Origin: an uncultured Pseudomonadota bacterium
GTDB taxonomy: Bacteria; Babelota; Babeliae; Babelales; Vermiphilaceae
Reading direction: 5' to 3'
DNA length: 64,000 bases
Assembly: GCA_964636815.1 (NCBI GenBank)
Contig: CAZWTF010000006.1
Coordinates: forward strand, 8,461-72,460
The notes under the pieces are model-generated. The model made no database searches and was not told where the DNA came from. It worked only from the letters and a program-made list of their open reading frames with translations. Position numbers and translations under genes: made by a program. This document shows positions 1-57,602 of the stretch, one piece after another (position 1 is the stretch's first letter; each line of letters opens with the position of its first letter).

Positions 1-1034
1 CCCGATTGTTTGGTTGGTTCTTCTACTTTTTTGTTGAAGGGTATTCGCCGTTTGTGGTGAGTGTTTTTTGGGCGTTGGCTAACTCTGTAAGTAGCCCCGC
101 TGAGGCAAAAAAGAATTATGGTTATATGGTAGCAGGCTCAAAGTTTGGTGGCATGGTTGCTGCAGCATTAGCTTGGTATATTTTTGGACTGAGTGCTCAA
201 TTAGTCAATCCGTATTTAACGCATGTTGAAGCGCATCAATTAATTTTAGTTGTTTCCACGCTGTTTTTGGCATTAGTTCCCATTGCTACTTTGCTTTTTA
301 TAAAAAAGGTTCCGGCTCATATGATGCATGGATACGAAGCAGCTTACAAGCTTGAAGCAGAGGAAAAAACTAATGTTCCCAAGCCAAGTATGTTTGCTGG
401 TCTTGAGATGTTTATTAGATATCCGTATGTGCTTGGTATTTTTGGAATGGTCTTTTTTTATGAGATTATTTCAACCGTGTTGAGTTATTTACGCTTAGGG
501 GTTGCGGAAGCGGGTGCAGGTTCTATTTCTGATGTTTCCAGAGTGTTGTTTGAAATAGCATTTAAAGCTCATTTTGTTGGGTTAGTTATTTCACTTGTTG
601 GTACACAGACATTGCTTGCCCGTCTTGGGACACGTATTTGCTTAATGCTGATTCCGTTATCTATGGGAGCTACTTTATTTTATATTATTTTTGAAACTTC
701 CCCGGAAGCATTACGAAATGCATTGGTGGTGTTTACTGCATTAAATTACGCATTTCTTGCTCCTGTTAGAGAGAGCTTGTATCTTCCGACAATTAAAGAG
801 ATTAAGTTTAAGTCAAAATCATGGATTGATGCCTTTGGTAGTAAATTTGCCAAAACAGCAGGTTCTATGTTTAATGTTTTTGCTTCAACAATGGGCGAGA
901 CATTTGTGTTGCCAGTGCACTCTTTTTTCTTTGCCATGACAATTGGATTGTGGTTTGGGGTAACCTTTTTGTTAGGGCGACGCTTTGAACAGGCAATTAG
1001 TAAAAATGAGGTTATTGGAGCTGAAGAAAAGTAA
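1..1034 (+). CDS. Nucleotide (ATP/ADP) translocase, NTT/Tlc family, 5'-truncated by the window edge
   Basis: The frame of ORF 6..1034 is open to base 1. It encodes about 340 aa of polytopic membrane protein. The block FWALANSV..PAEAKKNYG and the helix layout match my recollection of Chlamydia/Rickettsia Npt/Tlc carriers. Confidence 0.65.
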   Translation, partial: RLFGWFFYFFVEGYSPFVVSVFWALANSVSSPAEAKKNYGYMVAGSKFGGMVAAALAWYIFGLSAQLVNPYLTHVEAHQLILVVSTLFLALVPIATLLFIKKVPAHMMHGYEAAYKLEAEEKTNVPKPSMFAGLEMFIRYPYVLGIFGMVFFYEIISTVLSYLRLGVAEAGAGSISDVSRVLFEIAFKAHFVGLVISLVGTQTLLARLGTRICLMLIPLSMGATLFYIIFETSPEALRNALVVFTALNYAFLAPVRESLYLPTIKEIKFKSKSWIDAFGSKFAKTAGSMFNVFASTMGETFVLPVHSFFFAMTIGLWFGVTFLLGRRFEQAISKNEVIGAEEK

Positions 1035-20194: not shown

Positions 20195-20755
20195 TTATTT
20201 AACAGGATATGCTGTTACGATCTCTGATGTGTCTTTGAATGTATTTATTTGTATTTTTGTTTCGCCTTTTGTTCCGATCATTCTTTCCATCTCTATTATA
20301 TATTCGTCCCCTTTGCCTTTAGGGTTTGCTCGTGGCTCACCTCTGTTTCTCCATGCTTCATCAACCAAATCTAATATTTGATCTTCAGGAATGCTAAAAA
20401 CAGAATGAGTTGCTTTGGTAGGGTCAGCTTTGGCATGAGCTAATACATGATTGATGCGATTGGATAAACCTTTATTAGATTTGTATATCAAGCCAGCGGA
20501 TGATGTCCATGTGTTATTGCGTGTTAGGGTAGGTTGTTGTATCACAATAGGTTGTATTGGCGCTAGTTGAATCGGTGTTGGTTTTGGTTTTACTATGATA
20601 GGTTGAATTGGTTGGATTGGTATAATAGGAGTAGGTTGCATTTTGGGAGTTGTGGTTGCTCTTGAAACTTGTTTGGTATGTGCTGGTGCCACGGTGAATA
20701 GAATGGTAAGTAATACTATTTTCTTGGAAATATTTGTCATAATATTATCCTTCAT
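20195..20755 (-). CDS. Secreted protein: signal peptide, Pro-rich PxI/V linker, C-terminal ~110 aa globular domain of possible RNase-toxin type
   Basis: Signal peptide, then PTPIIPIQPIQPIIVKPKPTPIQLAPIQPIVIQQP, then a domain with NHVLAH, THSVF and the ending EIVTAYPVK. The domain assignment is tentative. Confidence 0.4.
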   Translation of the reverse strand: MKDNIMTNISKKIVLLTILFTVAPAHTKQVSRATTTPKMQPTPIIPIQPIQPIIVKPKPTPIQLAPIQPIVIQQPTLTRNNTWTSSAGLIYKSNKGLSNRINHVLAHAKADPTKATHSVFSIPEDQILDLVDEAWRNRGEPRANPKGKGDEYIIEMERMIGTKGETKIQINTFKDTSEIVTAYPVK

Positions 20756-22380: not shown

Positions 22381-22419
22381 AAGAAATAAATTGAGCATAA
22401 TTTAGTGAGGAATATTTTT

Positions 22420-24126
22420 ATGAACAGTGAAAAAGATTTGTCAGTACTACGTCATTCGGCCGCCCATCTTCTTGCACATGCAATTAAAGAACTGTTTCCA
22501 TCGACAATATTAACTATTGGTCCTGCAACAAAAGATGGTTTCTTTTATGACTTTTTGCCTGAGAAAAATTTTAAAGATGAAGATTTAGTGCACATCGAAG
22601 AAAGAATGCATCAGCTTTCTGCTAAAAATATTCCGCTTACTCATAAACAGATTTCAAAAGATGCTGCACGTGAACTTTATAAAAATAATCCATTTAAATT
22701 AGAACTCATTAATGAAATTCCTGGCGACACTGTTGGTCTTGCTGAACAAAGTGATTTTTATGATCTTTGTCGTGGTGGACATGTTGCATCAACAGGAGAA
22801 ATTAAACATTTTAAGTTGCTGTATATTTCTGGTTCTTATTGGCGTGCAGATAAAGACAAGCAGCCGTTGCAACGTATTACTGGTACAGCATTTTTTACAC
22901 AAGAAGATTTACAGGCATTTTTACAACAACGTGAAGATGCGATTCAATTTGATCACCGTAGACTTGGTAAAGAACTTGATCTATTTTCATTTCATGAAGA
23001 AGGTGTTGGTTTTCCGTTTTTCCACCCTCGTGGCACCATTGTTTTGAATGAGTTAAAAAGTCATATCAGAAAACATTTAAGAAAAGCTAAATATCAAGAG
23101 CTTCAAACACCAACTATGTTGAGCGATGAACTGTGGCGTAGATCTGGGCATTATCAACATTATAAAGATAATATGTATTTTTCTATGGTTGATGGGCATT
23201 CATATGCTCTTAAACCAATGAACTGTCCTGCAGCTATTCTTGTATATAAAGAACGTCCACATTCATATCGTGAACTTCCTTTGCGTTGGTCAGATTTTGG
23301 TCAGTTGCATAGACATGAACTGTCTGGCGTATTAAGTGGACTATTTAGAGTGCGTGCGTTCAGTCAAGATGACGCGCATATTTTCTGTACTCCAGAACAA
23401 ATTGAAAAAGAAATAGTAGATTTTATTGCGGTGCATGATGAAGTTTTAAAACCGTTTGGTTTTAGCAACATTGTTATTGGTGTTTCTACTCGTCCAGCAA
23501 AAGCTATGGGTAGTGATGAGTTATGGGAAGTTGCAACAAAAGCTTTGATTAATGGACTTGATAAAGCGGGTAAAACGTATGCAATCTATGAAGGTGAAGG
23601 TGCGTTTTATGGACCTAAGATAGAGTTTGGTATTGAAGATTCATTAAAACGTGTATGGCAATGTGGTACTATTCAAGTTGATTTCTTCCAACCAGAAAAT
23701 TTTGATTTAAGTTACATTTCTTCTGAAGGTGTTAAAGAAAGACCAGTTATGTTGCATCGCGCAATTTATGGATCATTTGAACGCTTTTTTGGTATTATTT
23801 TAGAACATTTTAAAGGCCGTTTACCATTTTGGTTATCACCAGTTCAGATGAAAATTTTGACTATCACTGATGATCAAAAAGAGCACGCTCATGAAATTAT
23901 GAATCAACTGTTCGATTATGGTGTGCGTGTAGAGATTGATAACTCTTCTGATCCTATTGCTGGTCAAATCAAACGTGCGCAGCTTGAGCGTGTGCCATTG
24001 ATGGTTGTGATTGGTAAAAAAGAAGTTGAAAATAAAACGGTTACATTGCGCGACTTAGATGGTAAACAACAGTTTGGAGTAACTTTTGAAGATTTGTTAC
24101 AAAAAATTGATGCATTAAAAATATAA
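22420..24126 (+). CDS. thrS: Threonyl-tRNA synthetase lacking the N-terminal TGS domain
   Basis: GAGGAA lies 8 nt upstream of ATG 22420. The protein starts at the HSAAHLLAHA editing-domain block. Class II core FRVRAFSQDDAHIF and a C-terminal anticodon-binding domain are present. Confidence 0.9.
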   Translation: MNSEKDLSVLRHSAAHLLAHAIKELFPSTILTIGPATKDGFFYDFLPEKNFKDEDLVHIEERMHQLSAKNIPLTHKQISKDAARELYKNNPFKLELINEIPGDTVGLAEQSDFYDLCRGGHVASTGEIKHFKLLYISGSYWRADKDKQPLQRITGTAFFTQEDLQAFLQQREDAIQFDHRRLGKELDLFSFHEEGVGFPFFHPRGTIVLNELKSHIRKHLRKAKYQELQTPTMLSDELWRRSGHYQHYKDNMYFSMVDGHSYALKPMNCPAAILVYKERPHSYRELPLRWSDFGQLHRHELSGVLSGLFRVRAFSQDDAHIFCTPEQIEKEIVDFIAVHDEVLKPFGFSNIVIGVSTRPAKAMGSDELWEVATKALINGLDKAGKTYAIYEGEGAFYGPKIEFGIEDSLKRVWQCGTIQVDFFQPENFDLSYISSEGVKERPVMLHRAIYGSFERFFGIILEHFKGRLPFWLSPVQMKILTITDDQKEHAHEIMNQLFDYGVRVEIDNSSDPIAGQIKRAQLERVPLMVVIGKKEVENKTVTLRDLDGKQQFGVTFEDLLQKIDALKI

Positions 24127-24135
24127 GGCAAAAAC

Positions 24136-24618
24136 GTGAATAACAGTAAGAATGTATTAGCTATTATATTGTTTGGTTTTTTTGTATTGTGTAACACTGC
24201 AAAAGCAATGGAACGTAATCGTATTGTACTTAGTCCTTTTTTGATAGACACAGGGGCAGAGCTCTATGAATTAGAACAAGTAGAAGCGATAGTTATGAAG
24301 CATAATAATTTTAAGCTTGAATCTGAGAATGTTTATGCTTGTTCATCTGCAGGTTGTAGGTTTTTTACTAAACATAAAAATCGTATAAAAAAACATCAAG
24401 AAATGCATGAGGCAATGCCTTATGCAAAAATATATCGTTGCAATCTTTGTGATTATATGATTGATTCACAGAGGAATATGGAAAATCATAAAAATAGTCA
24501 TAATAGCCAGAAGGAATGGCATTGCGATGTATGTAATACTGGTTTCAAAAGTGATCGCAGTAGAAAGCGTCATTATAATAGTCAAATGCATCAACACTAT
24601 GCCAGTATTCAAAAATAA
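24136..24618 (+). CDS. Secreted protein with three canonical C2H2 zinc fingers (GTG start)
   Basis: Signal-like N-terminus NVLAIILFGFFVLCNTAKA. Fingers are C-x4-C-x12-H-x3-H, C-x2-C-x12-H-x3-H and C-x2-C-x12-H-x5-H, read directly from the translation (residues 67-152). Confidence 0.75.
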   Translation: MNNSKNVLAIILFGFFVLCNTAKAMERNRIVLSPFLIDTGAELYELEQVEAIVMKHNNFKLESENVYACSSAGCRFFTKHKNRIKKHQEMHEAMPYAKIYRCNLCDYMIDSQRNMENHKNSHNSQKEWHCDVCNTGFKSDRSRKRHYNSQMHQHYASIQK

Positions 24619-24666
24619 TTGGATTCGATTTCATTAATATATGAAATCAAAAAAAATTGAATATAA

Positions 24667-24706
24667 GATCCCTCGTTATATCATGTGATGACGAGGGATT
24701 TTATTT
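24667..24706 (+). terminator. Hairpin terminator after the zinc-finger gene
   Basis: GATCCCTCGT...ACGAGGGAT followed by TTTTATTT. It abuts the stop of the convergent gene. Confidence 0.55.
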
Positions 24707-25681
24707 GTTGGTAGGTAGAGTTAAGTTTTTAGAAATCATTTTGTGTGCAAAATAGTGGCATAATGTTTGTTGTGGCACTGTTTTATTTTCCAATGTTGTG
24801 GTTAGTGGAATGATTGCGTGGTGTAGCACATCTTTGTTAAGAATGGGATCGCGTCCAGTTTTGTGCATAATCAGATGTGTATCTTGTTTATTAAACGCTA
24901 TTGTGGAAGTAATGCAAAATTTAGGAAAGTTAGGTTCAACAGGATATTCTTTTTTTTGAGTTTGTAAGTTTTTGATTTTTATACGAGATTCAAATATAGT
25001 AGTACCAGCTATACGTTTCACATAAATCTTTGCATAAATGTTTCCGTTTGAGGAGATTGCGAGGTTGCTAAGATATTTTTCTTGATGCTTTGGGTTATAA
25101 ATTGTGATGTTGTTTATCTCTTCATTTGTCATAGTGTTAACAATTGCTAGAGCATCAATTTTAAGTTTTTTTTGTTTAAGCATGTCTTGAGATTTGTATG
25201 TCATGGCGCATAGATTTTTGTTTGCAGAATAGACAACTGAATAACAATTATCATTTTCACAGTCTTTATGTTTTTTGAGCCATGCCTGAGGCATAACTCT
25301 ATCTTGATCAAATCTTTCTCTTGTGGGTTCTTCTGGACAGATTTCTTCTTGAGAATTTTCTACTTCTTTTTCTGTAGGTACTATGTATTTGAGGTCTAAA
25401 TTATCTTCTGATGAATCAAATTTTAATTCTTTTTCCTCTTCGATTGTGATTGTTTTTGTTTTTGAGTAGAAATTCGCAGGGTAATAACATGAAAGGCCTT
25501 TTTTACGATTAATGAATTGTTCTTCTGTTTCAACATCATCAAATGTTAAAAAACTGGCAATGAGATCCATTACGTCGGTAGGCATGTTTGTAAAAAAACA
25601 TGGAGGAGTTTCTGGTTCCATGCTGTTCAGTTGGGTTGTTATGGCGATTATGATGGTGAAGATAAAAATGTTTTTTTTCAT
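24701..25681 (-). CDS. Hypothetical protein with signal peptide and an F-box-like motif
   Basis: After the hydrophobic N-terminus, FFTNMPTDVMDLIASFLTFDDV resembles the F-box core LPxE(I/V)xxxIxxxL. The rest is unassigned. Confidence 0.4.
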   Translation of the reverse strand: MKKNIFIFTIIIAITTQLNSMEPETPPCFFTNMPTDVMDLIASFLTFDDVETEEQFINRKKGLSCYYPANFYSKTKTITIEEEKELKFDSSEDNLDLKYIVPTEKEVENSQEEICPEEPTRERFDQDRVMPQAWLKKHKDCENDNCYSVVYSANKNLCAMTYKSQDMLKQKKLKIDALAIVNTMTNEEINNITIYNPKHQEKYLSNLAISSNGNIYAKIYVKRIAGTTIFESRIKIKNLQTQKKEYPVEPNFPKFCITSTIAFNKQDTHLIMHKTGRDPILNKDVLHHAIIPLTTTLENKTVPQQTLCHYFAHKMISKNLTLPTNK

Positions 25682-26594: not shown

Positions 26595-29315
26595 ATGTTT
26601 TTTTTAGAATATATAGAATCAATCCTTGGTTCTTTTTACTTTATTTTACCCGCAACTCTTTTATCCTTTTTTCTTAAATTAGGTATTTTAATTGCTTTAG
26701 TAAGAAAAACTGCAAATATGGAAAGAGTTATTAATCCACTCTTTTTTTTGGTAGCTATTCTTATTGGCAATATGTTTTCTGATTTGGCTTGGATATTAAA
26801 ATTATCGCAATTACTTTTTTTGCCTAAACTAAGTTATCAGATTATTTTATTTATCATACGTTCTGCATGGATATTTTTTATGGTTCAGTATCAATCAATG
26901 TCACTGTTTGTAGAAAGTTTGGTAACTGATAGATATAGCGTTTCTATAAGACAAAAATGTCTTATTTTTATTAGCAGCCTGTTTGGTGTATTCTTTGCGA
27001 TAGCTGCCATTGTAGATTTTAATTGCATAGATCCATCTCGTAGAAAATTTAGCTTTGAGCCAACAATTCAAAATCTTGCCACATTCTATGCTTTATTTAT
27101 TGTTGTGTTGCCAAGTTTATGTATAGCCGTGCAAAAGATTAGATCTTCTAAATTGCCTCATTTGCTTAAAAAGCAATTGAGATTACTGATGCAGGGACTT
27201 ATCGCTCCCGTTTTCATGGCTGATTTAATTCAGGGATTTCCGTTTAAGGTATATGGCATTACATGGATTGCTCATACCTATGCTGGGGTTGGGTTTTCAA
27301 CAATACTTATTACCTGTGCTATTTATTTCTGTACACGTAAAATTTTTGGATTACGCTTTTTAAATTTAAAAAGCCACGTGCATCAGCCAATCAATATCAA
27401 CTTTATTGATGATTTTAAAGGGGTTTTAGAGAAACTCAGCAGCGTGACTAACTTTCGTGAATTGGGTTATATAACCCAAACTTTTTTTAAAGACACCTTT
27501 AATATACCCTCTTATAAAACACGTCTCTATTTGCGAAAAACAGATACTTTAGAACATAAAATAAACACTAACATTGCTGAAGATAGTACTGTTTCATTAG
27601 TTGAAACATTCTTAGTGACGCATGCACAGATTATTGAACTTGCCATGAAGAAAGAAAAAATTCTTATTTATGATGAGATCGATTTTACTCATTTTTATCA
27701 TGCATGTGAAAAAAGTGAAATAATTTTGAAATTCTTGAGCACCATCAATGCTGATATTTTCTTACCCATTTACGAAAATGAAAAGTTGATTGCGTATATT
27801 GTTGTTGAGCGTCATGCTCGTATAAAGCATTTTTATAGCAATGTTGAGCGCGATGAGCTGATTGTTTTTGGTAGTTATTTGGGTAATATCATTAATTTAC
27901 TTCAGAATAAAAACTTGGATCTTTTACTTGAGCAGTCACAACTGTTGCGCGATGAGTTGTATTGCAAACATCAAGAGATTGAGCAGTATAAAGAAAGTAT
28001 GCGATCATTCTTGCGCAAGCATAAAACAAAGCACATTGGAATACTGTTTTATAAAAATAGACAGTTTTCATATGGCAATCAGGCTGCAAAAGAGTTGATT
28101 GATATTAATATTAATCAGCAGCACGGGCATCCACTGGTACAGTATTTACGTGATATTGTGCGGCAGGTTGAATCATTTAAGGGTCCCAAAACAATTTTTG
28201 TTAAAGATGCGAATGATAATCAACTAATTGTTTCTGCCGTCCCGCACTTGGAAAAGAATACTATTATTATTACTGTTTCATATCCATCTATTTCTGATAC
28301 CATCAAGCATCACATTGATCTATTAAAAGACCCGAGCGAATGGGATTATCTATTGTATTTGCAAACAACCCAATCGGGTAGATTGATTAATCAACTGATT
28401 CCTGGTTCTGGGCAAGTATTACTTAACTTTAAGATTCAGTTATTAAAAATTGCTTTGAGCAAAAAAGCTATTTTATTGGAAATGCCTGAGCAAGATTTAC
28501 AACCAATGGCAGAGATTTTACACCATATTAGTATGCGTGATGATTTGCATGTTATGACATTGCAGGGGCCTTCAACTAATTATGATATTGCAATTGCGTT
28601 GTTTGGTATTAATCCGGTATTTGGTGTGCAGGAAAAGCATGGCAAGCCGTTGTTAGAAAAACTGGATAATGTTGGTACATTATTTATTAAAAACATTCAC
28701 TTTCTTGATGTAGAAACACAGGGATGCTTGGCAGCCTTCATCCGTTCTGGTGCATATAATCTCTTTAAAAGTGATCAAAAATTTACGAGTAATGTGCGTA
28801 TTATTTGTTCAACTAATCAGAATTTAAGCTTACTTGTACAAGAAGGTAAATTCAGTAAAGCGTTGTTCCAAGAACTGAAATCAACCGTTGTTACCATGCC
28901 TTCACTGTTAACATTGCCTGAAGATGAGTTACATTCCCTGACAGAAGGGTTTACGCAACAAGCGTTAATGTCAGATGCGTTGCAGCATGTTTTGGCGTTG
29001 ACTGATAAAGAAAAAGATTCACTTGCTGATCATCGTCCTATCAGTTTGCAAGAGCTTAAATCTCGCATTCAACAACTTCTTGTTAAAAAGTCTAAGAAAA
29101 ATCATATCTATCAAGAAGTTGCGTTTGATCCTACCTATGATATTACTGATCCTGGTCTTGTTGAAGCAGCACGTCTTGGTAAAAAAGCATTGCAAGAGCC
29201 ACGTGTGTTAGCTTTCTTGTGGAATAAGTTCAAAAATCAAAATAAAATCGCATTTTTCCTGGGTGTTAATCGTTCTTCTGTTAATCGTCGCTGTAAAGAG
29301 TATAATCTACTGTAA
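26595..29315 (+). CDS. Membrane-anchored regulator: polytopic N-terminal sensor, GAF-like region, degenerate sigma54-interaction (AAA+) domain, C-terminal Fis-type HTH
   Basis: About 7-8 TM helices in the first ~260 aa. GTLFIKNIHFLDVETQ..RIICSTNQNL..EGKFSKALFQELK...MPSL aligns to the bEBP core GTLFLDEI..Q..RvIaaTn.dL...G.FReDLyyRL....lPpL. The C-terminus is FFLGVNRSSVNRRCKEYNL. The Walker A position reads EMPEQDLQ. Confidence 0.6.
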   Translation: MFFLEYIESILGSFYFILPATLLSFFLKLGILIALVRKTANMERVINPLFFLVAILIGNMFSDLAWILKLSQLLFLPKLSYQIILFIIRSAWIFFMVQYQSMSLFVESLVTDRYSVSIRQKCLIFISSLFGVFFAIAAIVDFNCIDPSRRKFSFEPTIQNLATFYALFIVVLPSLCIAVQKIRSSKLPHLLKKQLRLLMQGLIAPVFMADLIQGFPFKVYGITWIAHTYAGVGFSTILITCAIYFCTRKIFGLRFLNLKSHVHQPININFIDDFKGVLEKLSSVTNFRELGYITQTFFKDTFNIPSYKTRLYLRKTDTLEHKINTNIAEDSTVSLVETFLVTHAQIIELAMKKEKILIYDEIDFTHFYHACEKSEIILKFLSTINADIFLPIYENEKLIAYIVVERHARIKHFYSNVERDELIVFGSYLGNIINLLQNKNLDLLLEQSQLLRDELYCKHQEIEQYKESMRSFLRKHKTKHIGILFYKNRQFSYGNQAAKELIDININQQHGHPLVQYLRDIVRQVESFKGPKTIFVKDANDNQLIVSAVPHLEKNTIIITVSYPSISDTIKHHIDLLKDPSEWDYLLYLQTTQSGRLINQLIPGSGQVLLNFKIQLLKIALSKKAILLEMPEQDLQPMAEILHHISMRDDLHVMTLQGPSTNYDIAIALFGINPVFGVQEKHGKPLLEKLDNVGTLFIKNIHFLDVETQGCLAAFIRSGAYNLFKSDQKFTSNVRIICSTNQNLSLLVQEGKFSKALFQELKSTVVTMPSLLTLPEDELHSLTEGFTQQALMSDALQHVLALTDKEKDSLADHRPISLQELKSRIQQLLVKKSKKNHIYQEVAFDPTYDITDPGLVEAARLGKKALQEPRVLAFLWNKFKNQNKIAFFLGVNRSSVNRRCKEYNLL

Positions 29316-32567: not shown

Positions 32568-34121
32568 ATGAAAAAAAACGTTATAGTACTTTTGTTATGT
32601 ATCAGTAGTAATGGCTTTGCCATGTATCAACCATCACATACCTCAGATGAGAATATATTAGCATCGATCCGCCTTAATCGTAAAAAGCAACTACCATTGT
32701 ATTATAGAGTTACTTGCTTACCTCAATTGGTTCAATGTGTTCAAGATAATAACGTAGAAGGTTTGAGGAATAAGTTAAACGGTGTAATGGAAAAATTCCC
32801 TAGTTTGTTAAGTCATGTATCTAGTGCATCGGTGTTGCATGAGGCAGTTAAAAACAATCGTCATTGTTGTATGGCATTATTGCTTGGATGCAATGCTCAT
32901 CCTAATACAATAGTGAATGATGGCAATACTCTTTTGCATGTAGCGAGAGGAAGCACGATGGTCCAGTTGTTGGTAGATCATGGTGCTTGGGTAGAGCAAA
33001 AGAATGATAAAGGTGAGACCCCATTGTTTGCTCTTTTTAGTAATATGACAACTTTTTCTTTAGATACAGCACAAGCTTTATGTGGTGCGGGTGCGGATGT
33101 TAATACGCGTGATAAACAAAATAATACTCCCTTGCATTGTGCAGTTGAACATTTAGGTTCGGCAGAAATAAAATTTTTGTTACATCGTGGAGCTTATGAT
33201 GATATTAATGATCAAGGAGAAACAGCGTATCAGATTGCAAAAAAACGAGGCTGGAATATTTTAAAAGCATTTCAAGAGTGGGAAAAAGTTTCTTGTGCAA
33301 TTAATGCCACTGTGCAAAATAATCCTTTTTTGACCATTATGAGTTTATTGGCGCATAATGGAGAACAATTAAAAAAACTTCTTATACGCGATCCTATTGG
33401 TTATTGCTCACCAGATATAATTATTGCTGAAAAATTATTTCAAAAATGTGATAGTGATGTTTGGAATGAATTAAGATCTGACATTTCACCATATAGTGCA
33501 GAAGCATTATCTCTTTTAAAGCTTGTCAGTGAGCGACGTATTCATAGAATGTCTTTTGTGAAATCATTACGTGAAAATGATTTTGCAAATGCTTGTGATT
33601 TTTTGAAAAAAAATCCTTACTTGTTGCATACGTATGATGGTGAATATGAATCCGATGACGTTAATGCTCTTTTTATTAACAAATTTATTTCGACTCCTTT
33701 TTTTTATACTCAGTACTGCTATCTTCGGGAAATGATTCATAGTGGTTTTTTTGATGTTGATAGTTGTGATACATCAGGTGACCCTTTATTAATTGCTGCG
33801 GTTCAAGAGCCTAAGGGCGGTGATAAATATCTTGATTTATTGCATGCGGGAGCATACGTGAATATAACAGATAAAGGAGGTTATACGCCATTGTTGTTGG
33901 CGGTAATGCAGGAGAAAGAAGATATGGTGTTACAGTTATTATCATATGGTGCGGTAGTTAATAAAGATTTTGGTTGGCAGGTTGTTTTACCAGATTCAAT
34001 GCGCGAGTTGATGGTTGATGCATATAATGAACAATGCTGTTTTATATGTCAGACTCATGATTATGATTTAGTAAGTATTCCTGGCCGTGGAAAGCGTTTT
34101 ATTTGTACTCATTGTCGTTAA
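32568..34121 (+). CDS. Ankyrin-repeat protein with signal peptide and C-terminal CxxC...CxxC zinc-ribbon-like tail
   Basis: Repeats of the type G.TPLH.A......V..LL..GA (GNTLLHVA, GETPLFAL, NNTPLHCAV, GYTPLLLAV). The tail is CCFICQ...FICTHCR. Confidence 0.8.
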   Translation: MKKNVIVLLLCISSNGFAMYQPSHTSDENILASIRLNRKKQLPLYYRVTCLPQLVQCVQDNNVEGLRNKLNGVMEKFPSLLSHVSSASVLHEAVKNNRHCCMALLLGCNAHPNTIVNDGNTLLHVARGSTMVQLLVDHGAWVEQKNDKGETPLFALFSNMTTFSLDTAQALCGAGADVNTRDKQNNTPLHCAVEHLGSAEIKFLLHRGAYDDINDQGETAYQIAKKRGWNILKAFQEWEKVSCAINATVQNNPFLTIMSLLAHNGEQLKKLLIRDPIGYCSPDIIIAEKLFQKCDSDVWNELRSDISPYSAEALSLLKLVSERRIHRMSFVKSLRENDFANACDFLKKNPYLLHTYDGEYESDDVNALFINKFISTPFFYTQYCYLREMIHSGFFDVDSCDTSGDPLLIAAVQEPKGGDKYLDLLHAGAYVNITDKGGYTPLLLAVMQEKEDMVLQLLSYGAVVNKDFGWQVVLPDSMRELMVDAYNEQCCFICQTHDYDLVSIPGRGKRFICTHCR

Positions 34122-34254
34122 GGCTTTTTTTTGTATAGGTATGACAAAAGGGCACTTGATTATTAGGTTGAATGAAAGTGTATATTGTTATTATTTTGTT
34201 AAAGTATCTGTATAATGTATGCCAATATTATCATCATTAATAAAAGGTTTAATC

Positions 34255-35325
34255 ATGCAAAAAATATGCACGATAATTATTTTGAGCAGTATGTTGTTTG
34301 TCGGCGATAGTAGTGGTATGGAATTTGGTCAAATAGATAACAAGGATATGTGGGATTTTATTGTTGCTGATCGTCAGGGTAATGCGCAGGAATTTATAAA
34401 GGAAAATTCTCATATAGTAAATGCAGTGATTAATAAGGGATCCTATTCATTATTACATTGTCTCGTAGAGTATGATGCAGTTTCTGCGGTAAAAGCTTTA
34501 TTGGAAGCGGGAGGAAATGAGCATATTAATATGGCAACTGAAGTGCAAAAGTATACACCACTGCATATGGTAAAAAGCAAAGAGATGGCAGAATTGTTAC
34601 TAGATAGTGGTGCAAATTTAGAGGCAAAAGATAAAAATGGAGCAACACCATTAAGTCATGTTCTGTTTTGTCGCAATAATTCAGATGAGTATTCTGGGTA
34701 CTTTGACATGACTAAGAAGGATAGCGAAACAGATAACAATCTGAGACGTTATTTATTAGAACGAGGGGCGAATAGTAATCTAGTGGATAATGTGGGAAAC
34801 AGTTTATTACATAGAGCTGTGGGAGGTTATTCTTATTCATATCGTTATCCTGAGTATTTTAAATTGTTGATGCAGTTTGCAGCCGACATAGAGATTAAAG
34901 ATAGTTATGGCAAAACGGCATACGATTGCGCCATAGATCGAATAAGTCATACTGAGCCGATATTAGAAGCTTTAAGAGAACTCAATGTTGTTTTTGTGAG
35001 AGATGCATGGGTGAAGTCAATAAGTTGGAAAAATAAGAATGGGGAATGGCAAGCTTGTAAAGCTCGTAATTTTCTAGAGTTCTTACAGAATGGTGCGTTA
35101 GAATGGAAAGAATATATGCTTGATAATCCTCACCCATATCAATTATCAGGGATCAAAAAGATACTGGCAGATTTATTGGAGATGGCACAAAAAAATCAAC
35201 ATAGTGGCAAGATTAGCTATTATAAAGATAAAGGATATTTATTTAATAAAGTAAATATTGCCGATTTAGAAGAATGGTGCGGTAAAGATTCAGTAGATTA
35301 TCTTTGTGAGTATTTTAAAATATAG
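34255..35325 (+). CDS. Ankyrin-repeat protein, tandem paralog A
   Basis: Signal peptide MQKICTIIILSSMLFVG and ankyrin repeats (YTPLHMV, GATPLSHV, GNSLLHRAV). The C-terminal domain is shared with paralog B. Confidence 0.8.
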   Translation: MQKICTIIILSSMLFVGDSSGMEFGQIDNKDMWDFIVADRQGNAQEFIKENSHIVNAVINKGSYSLLHCLVEYDAVSAVKALLEAGGNEHINMATEVQKYTPLHMVKSKEMAELLLDSGANLEAKDKNGATPLSHVLFCRNNSDEYSGYFDMTKKDSETDNNLRRYLLERGANSNLVDNVGNSLLHRAVGGYSYSYRYPEYFKLLMQFAADIEIKDSYGKTAYDCAIDRISHTEPILEALRELNVVFVRDAWVKSISWKNKNGEWQACKARNFLEFLQNGALEWKEYMLDNPHPYQLSGIKKILADLLEMAQKNQHSGKISYYKDKGYLFNKVNIADLEEWCGKDSVDYLCEYFKI

Positions 35326-35379: not shown

Positions 35380-35480
35380 AGTTTTTTAAAAGTGTGCTGT
35401 AAACCGCATATTGTTATTGTTTTGTTAAAGTTTATGTATAATGTATGTCAATATTATGATTATTAATAAAAGGTTTGATC

Positions 35481-36620
35481 ATGCAAAAATTATGCACGAT
35501 AATTGTTTTGAATACTATGTTGTTTGTTGCCAATAGTATTGGTATGGAATTACAAGATGTAGGTCAGCCTCGCACAATAAGTAAAGATATCATGCGGGAT
35601 TTTATACGTTCCGATCGTCAAGATAATGCCCAGAAATTTATAACGGAACATCCTCATATAGTAAGTGCATGGGTTGATTGTTGTAACTCTTTAGACCACT
35701 CTTATGACGACTCCTATTCAGTATTACATTGCCTAGTAGAGTATGATGAAGTTTCTCTAGTAAAAGCTTTGTTGGCAGAGGGAGCAAATAAGCATATTAA
35801 TAAATGGACTGGAAGGAAATGGCTCACCCCACTGCATATGGTACAGAGTAAAGAGATGGCAGAATTGTTGTTAGATCATGGTGCAGATTTAGACGCAAAA
35901 GATAAAGACGGAGTAACGCCATTAGGCCATGCGCTGTTTTATCGAGGAATTTGCGATTTTTATTCGAGATGTTTTCTTCCGGTTGTGACGTGCAGTGAAC
36001 AAGATAATGAGCTGAGACGCTATTTATTAGAACGAGGAGCGAATAGTAAAGCAGTTGATAATAAGGGAAACAGTTTATTGCATAGAGTAGCTTTAGGAGA
36101 TGTTTTTTATCCTCCACGTCATTATCCCGAGTTTATTACTTTGCTTATGGAGTTTGGAGCTGACATAGAGATGAAAGATAGTGATGGAAGAACACCATAC
36201 GATTGTGCTATAGCGCAAGGAAGCTATGCTCAGGGGATATTAAAAGCTTTAGAAGAATACAATATTTTTTTTGTGAGTGATCAATTGCCGAGAAACATAT
36301 GTTGGAGAAAGAAGATAAGTTGGAGAGATGAGATTGGAGAATATCAGAATTGTAGGGCTAAGAATCTTTTAGAGTTATTGCAGAATGATGCAGCAGAATT
36401 TAAAAGATGCATACGCAATCGTCCTGATTCATGTGGGATAGTTTTCATAAAAGGTGTATTAACAGATGTATTGAAAATGGCGCGTAAGAATAAATATCGT
36501 GGCGAGATTAAATATTATGAATTGAGAGGATATTTATTTAATAAAGTAAATATGGCTGACCTAGAAGAATGGTGTGGTAAAGATTCAGTAGATTATCTTT
36601 GTCAGTATTTAAAAATATAG
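35481..36620 (+). CDS. Ankyrin-repeat protein, tandem paralog B
   Basis: MQKLCTIIVLNTMLFVA signal peptide. Collinear with paralog A, including the C-terminal ...GYLFNKVN(I/M)ADLEEWCGKDSVDYLC(E/Q)Y(F/L)KI. Confidence 0.8.
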   Translation: MQKLCTIIVLNTMLFVANSIGMELQDVGQPRTISKDIMRDFIRSDRQDNAQKFITEHPHIVSAWVDCCNSLDHSYDDSYSVLHCLVEYDEVSLVKALLAEGANKHINKWTGRKWLTPLHMVQSKEMAELLLDHGADLDAKDKDGVTPLGHALFYRGICDFYSRCFLPVVTCSEQDNELRRYLLERGANSKAVDNKGNSLLHRVALGDVFYPPRHYPEFITLLMEFGADIEMKDSDGRTPYDCAIAQGSYAQGILKALEEYNIFFVSDQLPRNICWRKKISWRDEIGEYQNCRAKNLLELLQNDAAEFKRCIRNRPDSCGIVFIKGVLTDVLKMARKNKYRGEIKYYELRGYLFNKVNMADLEEWCGKDSVDYLCQYLKI

Positions 36621-36674: not shown

Positions 36675-37307
36675 TTATTTAAGTTTAATTTCAATTCTTT
36701 CAATTGATTTGCCAGGGCGATCGCGTTTGAGAGTTACATAACCAACTTCTGTAGTTGAGTTAACATGTGTTCCTCCGCAAGGCACTTGCGCAAACCCTTC
36801 AATTTTCCAATAACGGCGTTGATTGATGATGTCAGAATATCCACGTTCAATTGGGTAATTGCGATCAATGATGGCATTATATTCTTGTAATATTTTAGGC
36901 AACAGTGTTGAAATGTTGGCGTCTGATTTAAAATCAATGCGTGCTTTATGTTCAGCAATGTGCGCACCAACTTTTTCAAGATGATAGTTCTGAGTAACAA
37001 TTTCTAAAATCAGTTCTGCTGCAAAATGTAAGCGCATAAGTCTATGCCGCCGAGACCAATCAATTGTCATGGTAACGGCGATTCCTGCTTGGAGGCAATG
37101 ATTATCAGGAAGCGTGTAGAAAATAAGAGAGCCAACCGTTTTTGAGCCTAGAATTGGCATATCATTAATCCATGCTGTATCACTTTCTTGTCCGCCAGCA
37201 AAAGAGTAGGCGATTGTTGCATCAAATAGCACGGTATTGCCATCAACAGAAGTTACGGTAGTGTGCAGGGTTGTTTGGTAGGGGTTTTCCCAGAAGACTT
37301 TTCTCAT
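36675..37307 (-). CDS. AlaX-type tRNA editing protein (Thr/Ala-tRNA synthetase second additional domain)
   Basis: His-rich metal site around RRHRLMRLHFAAELI and the CGGTHV motif (VPCGGTHVNSTTEVG). Start taken at MRKVFWENPYQ. Confidence 0.65.
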   Translation of the reverse strand: MRKVFWENPYQTTLHTTVTSVDGNTVLFDATIAYSFAGGQESDTAWINDMPILGSKTVGSLIFYTLPDNHCLQAGIAVTMTIDWSRRHRLMRLHFAAELILEIVTQNYHLEKVGAHIAEHKARIDFKSDANISTLLPKILQEYNAIIDRNYPIERGYSDIINQRRYWKIEGFAQVPCGGTHVNSTTEVGYVTLKRDRPGKSIERIEIKLK

Positions 37308-37378
37308 AACTATTCTCGGTATAATAAAAAAAGGCACCAATTTCTTGGTACCTTTTTAAATTTTTTTAAAACAAGCTC

Positions 37379-56855: not shown

Positions 56856-57602
56856 TTATCCTCGAGCTGCAACTCCGGCTGCATAACCAGCTGAATAGTC
56901 AGCTTTTTCCGCAGATCCTTGTGCGCTTTCAGCTGCTTCCATTGCATCGGCTGCTGCTTGTTCAGCTCTATCAGCTTCTGCTTTAGATGCATAGTAATAA
57001 CCATCGTAATCAGATTGATAAGGATGTGATGCACTTGCTGCTAGTGCGTATGTAAGTCCAAGGGTACCTAAGAATAATCCGTAACCGCCCCATGCTCCCC
57101 ATCCACCCCAGTCGCCGCCATGTCCATAGTAATTGTTGTATGTATTGCCACGGTTACCACGATTTCCGCGATCACCACGGTTACCTCTGTTACCACGGTC
57201 TCCTCTATTGCCACGGTTACCTCTGTTACCACGGTCTCCTCTATTGCCAGCCCCAGTACCTCTGCCACCTCTGTTAGCAACACCAGCTCTTGTTCCAGCG
57301 CCCCCACGGCCTACAGCTGCAGTACCTCTACCGCCTCTGTTTGCTACGCCAGTGCCACCTCTACCTGCAGCGCCTCTGCCAGCACCGCCCATACGAGCAC
57401 CACCAGCGCGAGCACCACCGCCCATGCTTCTACCGCCACCACCCATGCTACGGCCACCGCCGCCCATACTTCTACCACCGCCTCCACGACCACCTCCGCC
57501 ACCACCACGGCCACCACCGCCGCCGCGTGGGAATGTGTCTTGAGTGAGCAAGAGTATGCTTGCAACTATACAGAGAGCATTAATTAGTTTTTTTCCGTTC
57601 AT
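56856..57602 (-). CDS. Exported Gly/Arg-rich (RGG/GAR-like) low-complexity protein with one C-proximal hydrophobic helix
   Basis: AGGAAG SD. Signal peptide MNGKKLINALCIVASILLLTQD, then GGGRGGGGGGRGGGGRSMGGGGRSMGGGGRSM...NRGDRGNRGNRG repeats, a Trp/Gly/Tyr block, a TM-like GLFLGTLGLTYALAASA, and an Ala/Glu-rich tail. Confidence 0.7.
   Translation of the reverse strand: MNGKKLINALCIVASILLLTQDTFPRGGGGGRGGGGGGRGGGGRSMGGGGRSMGGGGRSMGGGARAGGARMGGAGRGAAGRGGTGVANRGGRGTAAVGRGGAGTRAGVANRGGRGTGAGNRGDRGNRGNRGNRGDRGNRGNRGDRGNRGNRGNTYNNYYGHGGDWGGWGAWGGYGLFLGTLGLTYALAASASHPYQSDYDGYYYASKAEADRAEQAAADAMEAAESAQGSAEKADYSAGYAAGVAARG
57175..57246. repeat. Perfect 36-bp tandem duplication inside the RGG gene
   Basis: CCACGGTTACCTCTGTTACCACGGTCTCCTCTATTG occurs twice in tandem (57175..57210 and 57211..57246). 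Looser 21-bp RSMGGGG-coding repeats lie around 57410..57480. Confidence 0.9.

Follow-up and report, generated by a model that had tools for sequence, protein, structure and literature searches.

The stretch of DNA considered here, 64,000 nucleotides (nt) long and called the window below, is a piece of bacterial chromosome with about 36% GC, in which rpsB, dnaX, der, argS, tig, trxB, thrS, nth, ftsH and tol-pal are found. Just downstream of thrS lies a small open reading frame (ORF) for a protein predicted to be exported and to carry three classical Cys2His2 (C2H2) zinc fingers, and it is this zinc-finger gene that concerns us. The coordinates of its parts, and of other features of the window, are collected in Table 1.

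The ORF runs from a GTG start at 24136 to a stop codon at 24616-24618, i.e. 160 amino acids. It is separated from thrS by 9 nt only and a terminator scan found none in between; because of this short gap and the lack of an intervening terminator, the two genes are likely to be co-transcribed. A purine-rich motif stands 5′ of the leader start in every orthologue for which DNA is available (TAAGG, TAAGG, TAGGA and GAGGG), while none of these orthologues has a Shine-Dalgarno-like motif 5′ of the internal Met25 codon. The base composition is native: the gene has 31.7% GC against 35.9% for the window, and its GC content at third codon positions is 0.23, against 0.21 in thrS. The predicted mature protein has 136 residues, a mass of 16.3 kDa and an isoelectric point (pI) of 8.9, and each of its six cysteines stands at a zinc ligand position. 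The finger region is basic (pI 9.5); the spacer in front of it has a 25-residue insertion in one orthologue.

Table 1. Features of the zinc-finger gene and its surroundings, in window coordinates (↓ marks a predicted cleavage site)
Feature	Position	Strand	Description	Basis
Whole zinc-finger gene	24136..24618	+	160-amino-acid precursor: signal peptide, acidic linker, three C2H2 fingers	ORF list, sequence, homologues
Shine-Dalgarno-like AAGG	24125..24128	+	7 nt 5′ of GTG; overlaps the thrS stop codon TAA (24124-24126)	
Residues 1-24, predicted cleavable Sec signal peptide	24136..24207	+	n-region MNNSK, h-region NVLAIILFGFFVLC, c-region NTAKA, predicted cut AKA↓ME	
Residues 25-66, acidic spacer or pro-region	24208..24333	+	pI 4.6, predicted disordered, hypervariable	
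Finger 1, residues 67-91	24334..24408	+	Y67-A-C69-SSAG-C74-x12-H87-QEM-H91; beta-beta-alpha unit in model	
Finger 2, residues 100-122	24433..24501	+	Y100-R-C102-NL-C105-x12-H118-KNS-H122; beta-beta-alpha unit; best stretch for zf-C2H2_jaz and zf-C2H2	
Linker between fingers 2 and 3	24502..24522	+	NSQKEWH, 7 residues, TGEKPYx type	Alignment; zf-H2C2_2
Finger 3, residues 128-152	24517..24591	+	W128-H-C130-DV-C133-x12-H146-YNSQM-H152; zf-met over full model	
thrS (threonyl-tRNA synthetase)	22405..24126	+	Conserved upstream neighbour of the zinc-finger gene	Pfam; synteny in L003, L004, L005, L085, L086
Intrinsic-terminator-like hairpin	24663..24704	+	17-bp stem and T tract; between the convergent zinc-finger gene and gene at 24701-25681	
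TLC-family ATP/ADP translocase, C-terminal part, cut by window edge	6-1034	+	Marker of energy parasitism	
Three tandem ankyrin-repeat genes	32568-34121, 34219-35325, 35475-36620	+	Signal-like leaders ending G/A↓M	

The zinc-finger array

A first-pass annotation of the sequence had described three tandem Cys-Cys-His-His (CCHH) units over residues 67-152; they occupy exactly 24334-24591 and have the spacing that it gave. As a control for chance, the pattern C-x2-4-C-x12-H-x3-6-H was scanned in six frames over the whole 64 kb: only four other matches came out, all isolated and in non-coding frames opposite real genes, and for this reason three consecutive in-frame units are not to be attributed to chance. 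In five homologues that are 34-45% identical to the protein, 11 of the 12 ligand positions are invariant columns, and the twelfth, the closing His of finger 3, occurs in each of the five, its spacing varying from x4 to x6. Fingers 1 and 2 end in H-x3-H; for finger 3 the end is H-x4-6-H across the homologues.

Two zinc-finger families of Pfam score above their cut-offs, zf-met on finger 3 (34.1 bits against 21.2, E = 3e-8) and zf-C2H2_jaz on finger 2 (27.4 bits against 22.6). The zf-H2C2_2 model, which spans finger, linker and finger, matches residues 114-138 below threshold (20 against a cut-off of 40) and is found in 5 of 6 family members, in all of them below the Pfam cut-off. The linker between fingers 2 and 3 reads GDERPYH, DGTKQYH or DEQKQYH in homologues (the first of these in P0054), and the helix of finger 3, FKSDRSRKRH, is one that we take to resemble finger 3 of Zif268. 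When phmmer was run against PDB, the whole array aligned to CTCF (E = 1.8e-11), with further array matches to Aart, PRDM9, WT1 and Zif268/EGR1 (residues 64-152 against 2-87).

An AlphaFold2 model made from a five-sequence alignment has an N-terminal helix, disorder at residues 24-63 (predicted local distance difference test, pLDDT, below 50) and three beta-beta-alpha units (EE-EE-H at 67-93, 100-122 and 128-147) whose block-mean pLDDT is 73-83. Over the whole chain the mean pLDDT is 63 and the predicted template-modelling score (pTM) 0.34, low values that are expected because the architecture is one of beads on a string. The top Foldseek matches in PDB are Zif268 variants, CTCF, WT1, ZBTB7A and PRDM9, nearly all of them DNA-bound, and for the top ones (Zif268 variants, CTCF and WT1) the match probability is ~1.0. 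A Ros/MucR-type fold, which the first-pass annotation had allowed for, is rejected: the ROS_MUCR model of Pfam has no match at E <= 1 in the query protein or in any family member, no Ros structure is among the top 50 Foldseek matches, and there are three tandem sites with x12 spacing. Judged from the sequence and the predicted structure, the three units are classical beta-beta-alpha C2H2 fingers of the eukaryotic type.

Leader, relatives and rate of evolution

The N-terminus has the n/h/c layout of a signal peptide, with a basic n-region, Ala at -3 and -1, and an h-region (VLAIILFGFFVL, 13-14 residues) that is among the most hydrophobic N-terminal segments of the window. Among orthologues the amino-acid identity of the leader is 54-62%, against 15-24% in the adjoining segment; its end, A24-M25, is invariant in homologues, and in one member the leader carries an in-frame deletion of 3 codons. 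The signal-like hydrophobic segment noticed in the first pass is thus borne out by layout, by conservation and by the Shine-Dalgarno-like motifs that precede the leader start. Two other readings of the leader were considered. That of a lipoprotein is rejected, as C19 follows V-L, which makes no lipobox, and is absent from the branch formed by L005 and P0152; that of a membrane anchor is unlikely, as the h-region, at some 13-14 residues, is too short to anchor stably and is followed by a conserved AxA-type site.

The residue pair at the end of the leader recurs in the window. Leaders ending in [AGSC]↓Met are found in 11 of 31 signal-like ORFs, when ~5% would be expected from dipeptide frequency (binomial P ~1e-7); the ORFs start at 24136, 24701(-), 32027, 32568, 34219, 35475, 43329(-), 45198, 48277, 60102 and 61537, and examples of the ending are AKA↓MERN, NGFA↓MYQP, SSG↓MEFG and ASA↓MKHK. 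The class includes the zinc-finger protein, its 326-amino-acid neighbour, all three ankyrin proteins and several orphans, and the ending is absent from TolB, the penicillin-binding protein, FtsH, TolQ/R and a secreted peroxiredoxin-like protein. A WD40 protein of a relative (contig L085, 18269-20245) has the same ending, LIA↓MDAP. Since the [AGSC]↓Met ending is common to both, the zinc-finger protein shares its leader type with proteins that the literature deems host-directed. Possible readings of the ending are a cleavage or sorting motif specific to the lineage, a second start, and the original start codon retained in genes that acquired a leader.

Searches for relatives of the protein brought seven, hence eight variants, all with the same plan of leader, variable spacer and three CCHH units. 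A word-indexed protein search returned only a metagenome copy that is 98% identical. An exhaustive phmmer search gave 15,776 matches, mostly giant multi-finger proteins aligned finger by finger at 25-32% identity, together with four small full-length homologues (P0026, P0054, P0074 and P0121; 159-193 amino acids, 34-45% identical), and a profile search added P0151 and P0152. P0151 is the product of the gene directly after thrS in a metagenome-assembled genome (MAG) of Dependentiae. Wherever context is readable the slot is conserved, with the gene 7-60 nt 3′ of thrS, and this position is kept even where the orthologue is only 18% identical; the layout of P0054 is alike, with a partial gene upstream. 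The gene is single-copy and syntenic, and does not belong to an expanded family. Among the matches listed, no relative was found in a scan of 185,579 species genomes with the protein, and no member either in a metagenome scan with a 3-sequence alignment or in a scan of viral contigs. A metagenome scan with threonyl-tRNA synthetase (ThrRS), made for synteny, listed only distant ThrRS (<=50% identity) among its matches, which are swamped by the universal QDDAHIFC motif, so that close relatives may be missed. Among the matches listed, then, the family appears from its sequences to be confined to one small clade of close relatives. No specific donor lineage stands out among the phmmer matches, and a recent transfer from a eukaryote is without support: composition is native, and the eukaryote-like matches are generic, at 25-32% identity.

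The gene evolves fast on a fixed ligand scaffold. Between the window and a related contig (L003), the PIN-PhoH gene and thrS both retain 97% amino-acid identity (nonsynonymous rate, dN, 0.014 and 0.022; synonymous rate, dS, 0.32 and 0.50), while the zinc-finger gene is down to 44% (dN 0.47, dS 0.71, dN/dS ~0.66); its dN is thus ~20 times that of the adjoining thrS at a similar dS. By region, dN/dS is ~1.2-1.7 in the spacer (residues 25-66), ~0.4-0.5 in the fingers and ~0.6-0.9 in the leader, and since dS is near saturation and there are three orthologue DNAs only, what these values establish is fast evolution on a fixed scaffold and not positive selection. Ligands and core positions of the fingers are fixed across the family. 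In finger 2 the residues at helix positions -1, +3 and +6 vary across nearly all members, and R/K at +2, S at +3 and R at +6 are retained in finger 3. The neighbourhood has a second exported orphan that evolves fast: a signal-bearing protein of 186 amino acids (20195-20755, - strand) with no Pfam match, which is 59% identical to its L003 orthologue (dN 0.31) and is flanked by PIN-PhoH and thrS, both at 97%.

The organism and neighbouring genes

The first-pass annotation had spoken of a host-associated organism, and rightly, because both ThrRS and gene order place the window in Dependentiae. The ThrRS is 82% identical to that of the MAG ‘Candidatus Dependentiae bacterium AS-MICRO-OLR.1’ and <=49% identical to that of every other species genome found, and a Logan contig of a relative (L085) has a gene order in common with the window over 20 kb; the TLC translocase and the signal-bearing ankyrin genes agree with this. 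From such sequence evidence the source is a Dependentiae (TM6) bacterium. Cultured members of the phylum live as obligate parasites inside the cells of amoebae and flagellates (PMC4378268, PMC6561590, PMC4776705). The tandem ankyrin genes with their leaders are, by analogy, typical of the effector candidates described for Dependentiae: in the papers on the phylum a signal peptide joined to a eukaryote-like domain is taken as the effector architecture, with the type II secretion system (T2SS) as the only secretion system (PMC4378268, PMC6561590, PMC4776705). Signal peptides are present on 79 of the 126 ankyrin proteins of Babela massiliensis, and T2SS is the sole secretion system found in this species (PMC4378268). 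Chromulinavorax destructans has signal peptides on 44% of its coding sequences and on 78% of its ankyrin proteins, with budding vesicles seen early in infection (PMC6561590). All TM6 genomes compared have T2SS genes in common (PMC4776705).

Between the zinc-finger gene and nth lies a signal-bearing orphan of 326 amino acids (24701-25681, - strand). The 96%-identical contigs L001 and L002 have it too (dN/dS 0.51 against L001), but L005, L085 and L086 lack it in that slot; in L003 the zinc-finger gene is followed by one on the + strand. Its N-terminus, MPTDVMDLIASFLTFDDV, looks F-box-like by eye, and an F-box is not claimed because no Pfam F-box model matches at E <= 1. Three more genes deserve mention. 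At 56856-57602 (- strand), a signal-like leader is followed by a long low-complexity run rich in Gly and Arg (GGGGGRGGGGGGRGGGGRS...), and an exported RGG-like protein is unusual for a bacterium. At 36675-37340 (- strand), a stand-alone protein of 221 amino acids has tRNA_SAD (the second additional domain of Thr/Ala-tRNA synthetases) as its sole Pfam match, which suggests that it may be a free-standing editing factor. A protein of 906 amino acids (26595-29315, + strand), hydrophobic at its N-terminus, has a sigma-54-interaction AAA+ domain towards its C-terminus and no Pfam match over the large N-terminal part, and is kept beside nth in a relative (L085, 11434-14151).

Interpretation and comparison with known systems

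The explanation that we favour, tentatively when the chain is taken from end to end, is that of a host-directed effector, exported via Sec and T2SS, that binds nucleic acid. The zinc-finger gene would be transcribed together with thrS and translated from the GTG at 24136; Sec would carry the precursor over the inner membrane, with a cut after Ala24 (AKA↓M), and the product would be a basic protein of 136 residues and 16 kDa, in which an acidic disordered N-terminus is followed by the three fingers. Its release from the bacterium would most likely be through T2SS or in outer-membrane vesicles, as for the signal-bearing ankyrin proteins of the phylum. Small enough to enter the nucleus by diffusion, the zinc-loaded array would bind host nucleic acid and alter host gene expression, and the very fast divergence on an invariant zinc-ligand scaffold would reflect adaptation to host targets. 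Double-stranded DNA would be the most likely ligand, because the array is Zif268/CTCF-like, its structural matches are DNA-bound and the linker between fingers 2 and 3 is canonical; RNA is possible too and is kept open because the best single-finger models, zf-met and JAZ, are of the RNA type.

That the protein is a candidate for a DNA or RNA binder sent to the host is credible from its sequence. The first-pass annotation went further, in calling it a strong candidate nucleomodulin. The candidacy is reasonable, given the signal, the classical fingers and a host-dependent phylum; the adjective overstates the case, because passage of the outer membrane, host entry, nuclear localisation and binding of zinc and nucleic acid are all steps that we infer. 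Several points weigh against the effector explanation. Every step after translation (cutting of the signal, secretion past the periplasm, entry into the host, binding of zinc and of nucleic acid) is a prediction, and the signal peptide was assessed manually rather than with SignalP. Thiol oxidation in the periplasm is a hurdle that exported zinc fingers must survive, and no zinc finger is known to us among T2SS substrates. The protein has no clear classical nuclear localisation signal (NLS), and tight coupling to a housekeeping gene such as thrS is unusual for an effector. As to the fingers, in the zf-C2H2 profile search proposed in the first pass the generic model PF00096 stays below its cut-off (17.5 against 25.2 bits), beside the two families above theirs, and the best single-finger models are those of RNA-type families. 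Of the Krüppel-type linkers named at the same time, the one between fingers 2 and 3 has the canonical 7 residues, and the one between fingers 1 and 2 is non-canonical at 10-13 residues; the conserved core aromatic stands at C+4 in finger 3, and the other two fingers have it at C+2, a position that it also takes in many fingers of CTCF. The structural model comes from a shallow alignment. Finally, dN/dS over the whole gene is below 1 (0.43-0.71 across comparisons) in a rate analysis limited by the number of DNAs and by dS.

The leader by itself predicts passage of the inner membrane only, and ~44% of the coding sequences of a related species are signal-bearing, many of them surely for envelope proteins (PMC6561590). 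The protein could therefore be exported via Sec and stay in the periplasm or envelope, its CCHH units storing or buffering zinc for the bacterium itself or serving it as a module for protein contacts, and co-transcription with a housekeeping gene fits such a cellular role. We consider this unlikely, since no periplasmic role is known for a basic tandem array of the Zif268/CTCF kind with a TGEKP-type linker, since the leader class is common with ankyrin and WD40 proteins rather than with housekeeping envelope proteins, and since a rate 20 times that of neighbouring genes is unusual for a metal-homeostasis protein. A further alternative is an internal start: with initiation at Met25, the leader being unmade or made in part only (dual start), the product would be a cytoplasmic regulator of the bacterium's own genes. 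The leader is indeed followed by a Met in all orthologues, as it is in 11 of the window's signal-like ORFs, and one gene caller put the start of the L005 orthologue inside the leader. Still, the leader is conserved as protein (even its deletion is in frame), the Shine-Dalgarno-like motifs precede the leader start and not Met25, and the gap to thrS would become an 81-nt stretch that is open in frame in all orthologues; a start at Met25 is accordingly judged unlikely, and the regulator that it would yield distinctly improbable.

Another possibility is that delivery to the host is right and the target is not DNA, the fingers binding host proteins or single- or double-stranded RNA (in RNA processing or translation, or on a signalling protein). 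The best per-finger Pfam models, zf-met and zf-C2H2_jaz, are RNA-binding families, finger 3 fits that type in model and in its H-x4-6-H spacing (fingers 1 and 2 have H-x3-H), and C2H2 fingers often mediate protein contacts. Set against this are the array-level alignment and structural matches to DNA-bound arrays, and linkers of 7-10 residues between fingers, where JAZ-type fingers are normally separated by long ones, so that we see only a minor chance for it. As for an orphan in decay or without function, with no more than a zinc-finger-like pattern left, the very high dN and the very few homologues in databases of billions of proteins would be in its favour, but eight variants have an intact ORF, none of the five homologues lacks any of the 12 ligand residues, dN/dS is <1 in the fingers and the slot after thrS is kept even at 18% identity, which makes it hardly tenable.

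In the boldest version of the effector explanation, the bacterium would export a Zif268-like, sequence-specific DNA-binding array into its protist host via Sec and T2SS and rewrite host transcription, with recognition residues that diversify between close strains as they track host targets, and the [AGS]↓Met leader would mark a class of host-directed proteins. This extended version is rather doubtful; if true, the array would be a bacterial counterpart of transcription activator-like (TAL) effectors, made from the eukaryotes' own DNA-reading module. The leader ending may also be a trace of the way in which acquired genes came by an export signal, placed upstream of the start codon that they had before, and it could provide an easy sequence criterion by which to list effector candidates in genomes of Dependentiae. 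These bacteria are widespread and almost uncultured parasites of protists, whose predicted effectors have so far all been protein-interaction repeats or enzymes; with a classical zinc-finger array that is secreted, this range would come to include the direct reading of host nucleic acid. No earlier bacterial effector candidate made of tandem C2H2 fingers of the eukaryotic type is known to us or turned up in the literature searched, so that this one would be the first. Its family is, moreover, a natural series of three-finger arrays that diverge fast while the scaffold stays fixed, useful for studying the evolution of recognition, and at 136 residues the mature protein is small enough for metal analysis, DNA and RNA binding arrays and localisation of a green fluorescent protein fusion to be cheap.

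Among known proteins the fingers themselves compare best with the arrays of Zif268/EGR1, CTCF and WT1, aligned by sequence and structure: they share the CCHH spacing, the predicted beta-beta-alpha fold, basic recognition helices, the three-finger array and the 7-residue TGEKP-type linker between fingers 2 and 3. Unlike these, the protein is bacterial and has a Sec signal and an acidic disordered stretch in front, a linker of 10-13 residues between fingers 1 and 2, C+2 aromatics in these two fingers and H-x4-6-H in finger 3. Ros/MucR proteins are also bacterial with a Cys2His2 zinc site; however, theirs is a single site of shorter C...H spacing in a larger globular domain, and they are cytoplasmic regulators. 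Within Dependentiae, the ankyrin, WD40 and F-box proteins of Babela massiliensis and Chromulinavorax destructans have in common with the zinc-finger protein the phylum, a Sec signal joined to a eukaryote-type domain and the presumed Sec/T2SS or vesicle route (PMC4378268, PMC6561590), and the ankyrin proteins have the leader ending as well, three such genes lying 8-12 kb away in the window. The difference is that the domain here is predicted to be a nucleic-acid-binding array and not a protein-interaction repeat. The kind of protein is thus known, one with a signal and a eukaryote-like domain, and what is new is that the domain is a classical zinc-finger array. The word ‘zinc’ is absent from the main text of the Babela paper (PMC4378268) and of the TM6 comparative-genomics paper (PMC4776705), and a literature search on zinc fingers in Dependentiae found nothing relevant (PMC6561590 was not among its results).

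For a bacterial C2H2-array effector or nucleomodulin, the literature searched offered no precedent, only the fungal MoHTR effectors. MoHTR1, MoHTR2 and MoHTR3 of the rice blast fungus Magnaporthe oryzae are, like the protein described here, small, with a signal peptide, a spacer and one or more C2H2 fingers; MoHTR2, for example, has 110 amino acids and a finger at residues 68-101. Once secreted into the host, these effectors move into the nucleus and reprogramme transcription, and MoHTR3 is poorly conserved between species (PMC12488382, PMC10189765). Their producer is a eukaryote, however, and their route the secretory one through the endoplasmic reticulum; the likeness is one of architecture, without a sequence relationship shown, and on the bacterial side function is predicted only. 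With this proviso MoHTR1-3 would be the closest functional analogues. TAL effectors of Xanthomonas, bacterial proteins that are delivered to the host and bind its DNA with a modular repeat array, would be close in logic. With them and other nucleomodulins the zinc-finger protein has in common the proposed logic of a host-delivered, modular DNA binder of bacterial origin; unlike it, TAL effectors use another DNA-binding fold and type III delivery, as against the Sec/T2SS route proposed here, and have NLSs of their own and an activation domain, neither of which is evident in the zinc-finger protein.

A last parallel is provided by giant viruses that infect protists. Their tandem C2H2 proteins match the model structurally (BFVD), with a probability of ~1.0 in Hyperionvirus, Bodo saltans virus, Aureococcus anophagefferens virus, Pithovirus and Marseillevirus, and also in Tunisvirus, and are likewise tandem classical arrays encoded by parasites of protists. 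They differ in being larger and only 20-29% identical over the fingers, without sign of direct homology or of signal peptides. Shared ankyrin expansions have been noted in giant viruses and Dependentiae (PMC6561590), to which the likeness in C2H2 arrays runs parallel. It is possible that C2H2 arrays are a module for host manipulation on which the two kinds of parasite converged, or which they exchanged, in shared hosts.

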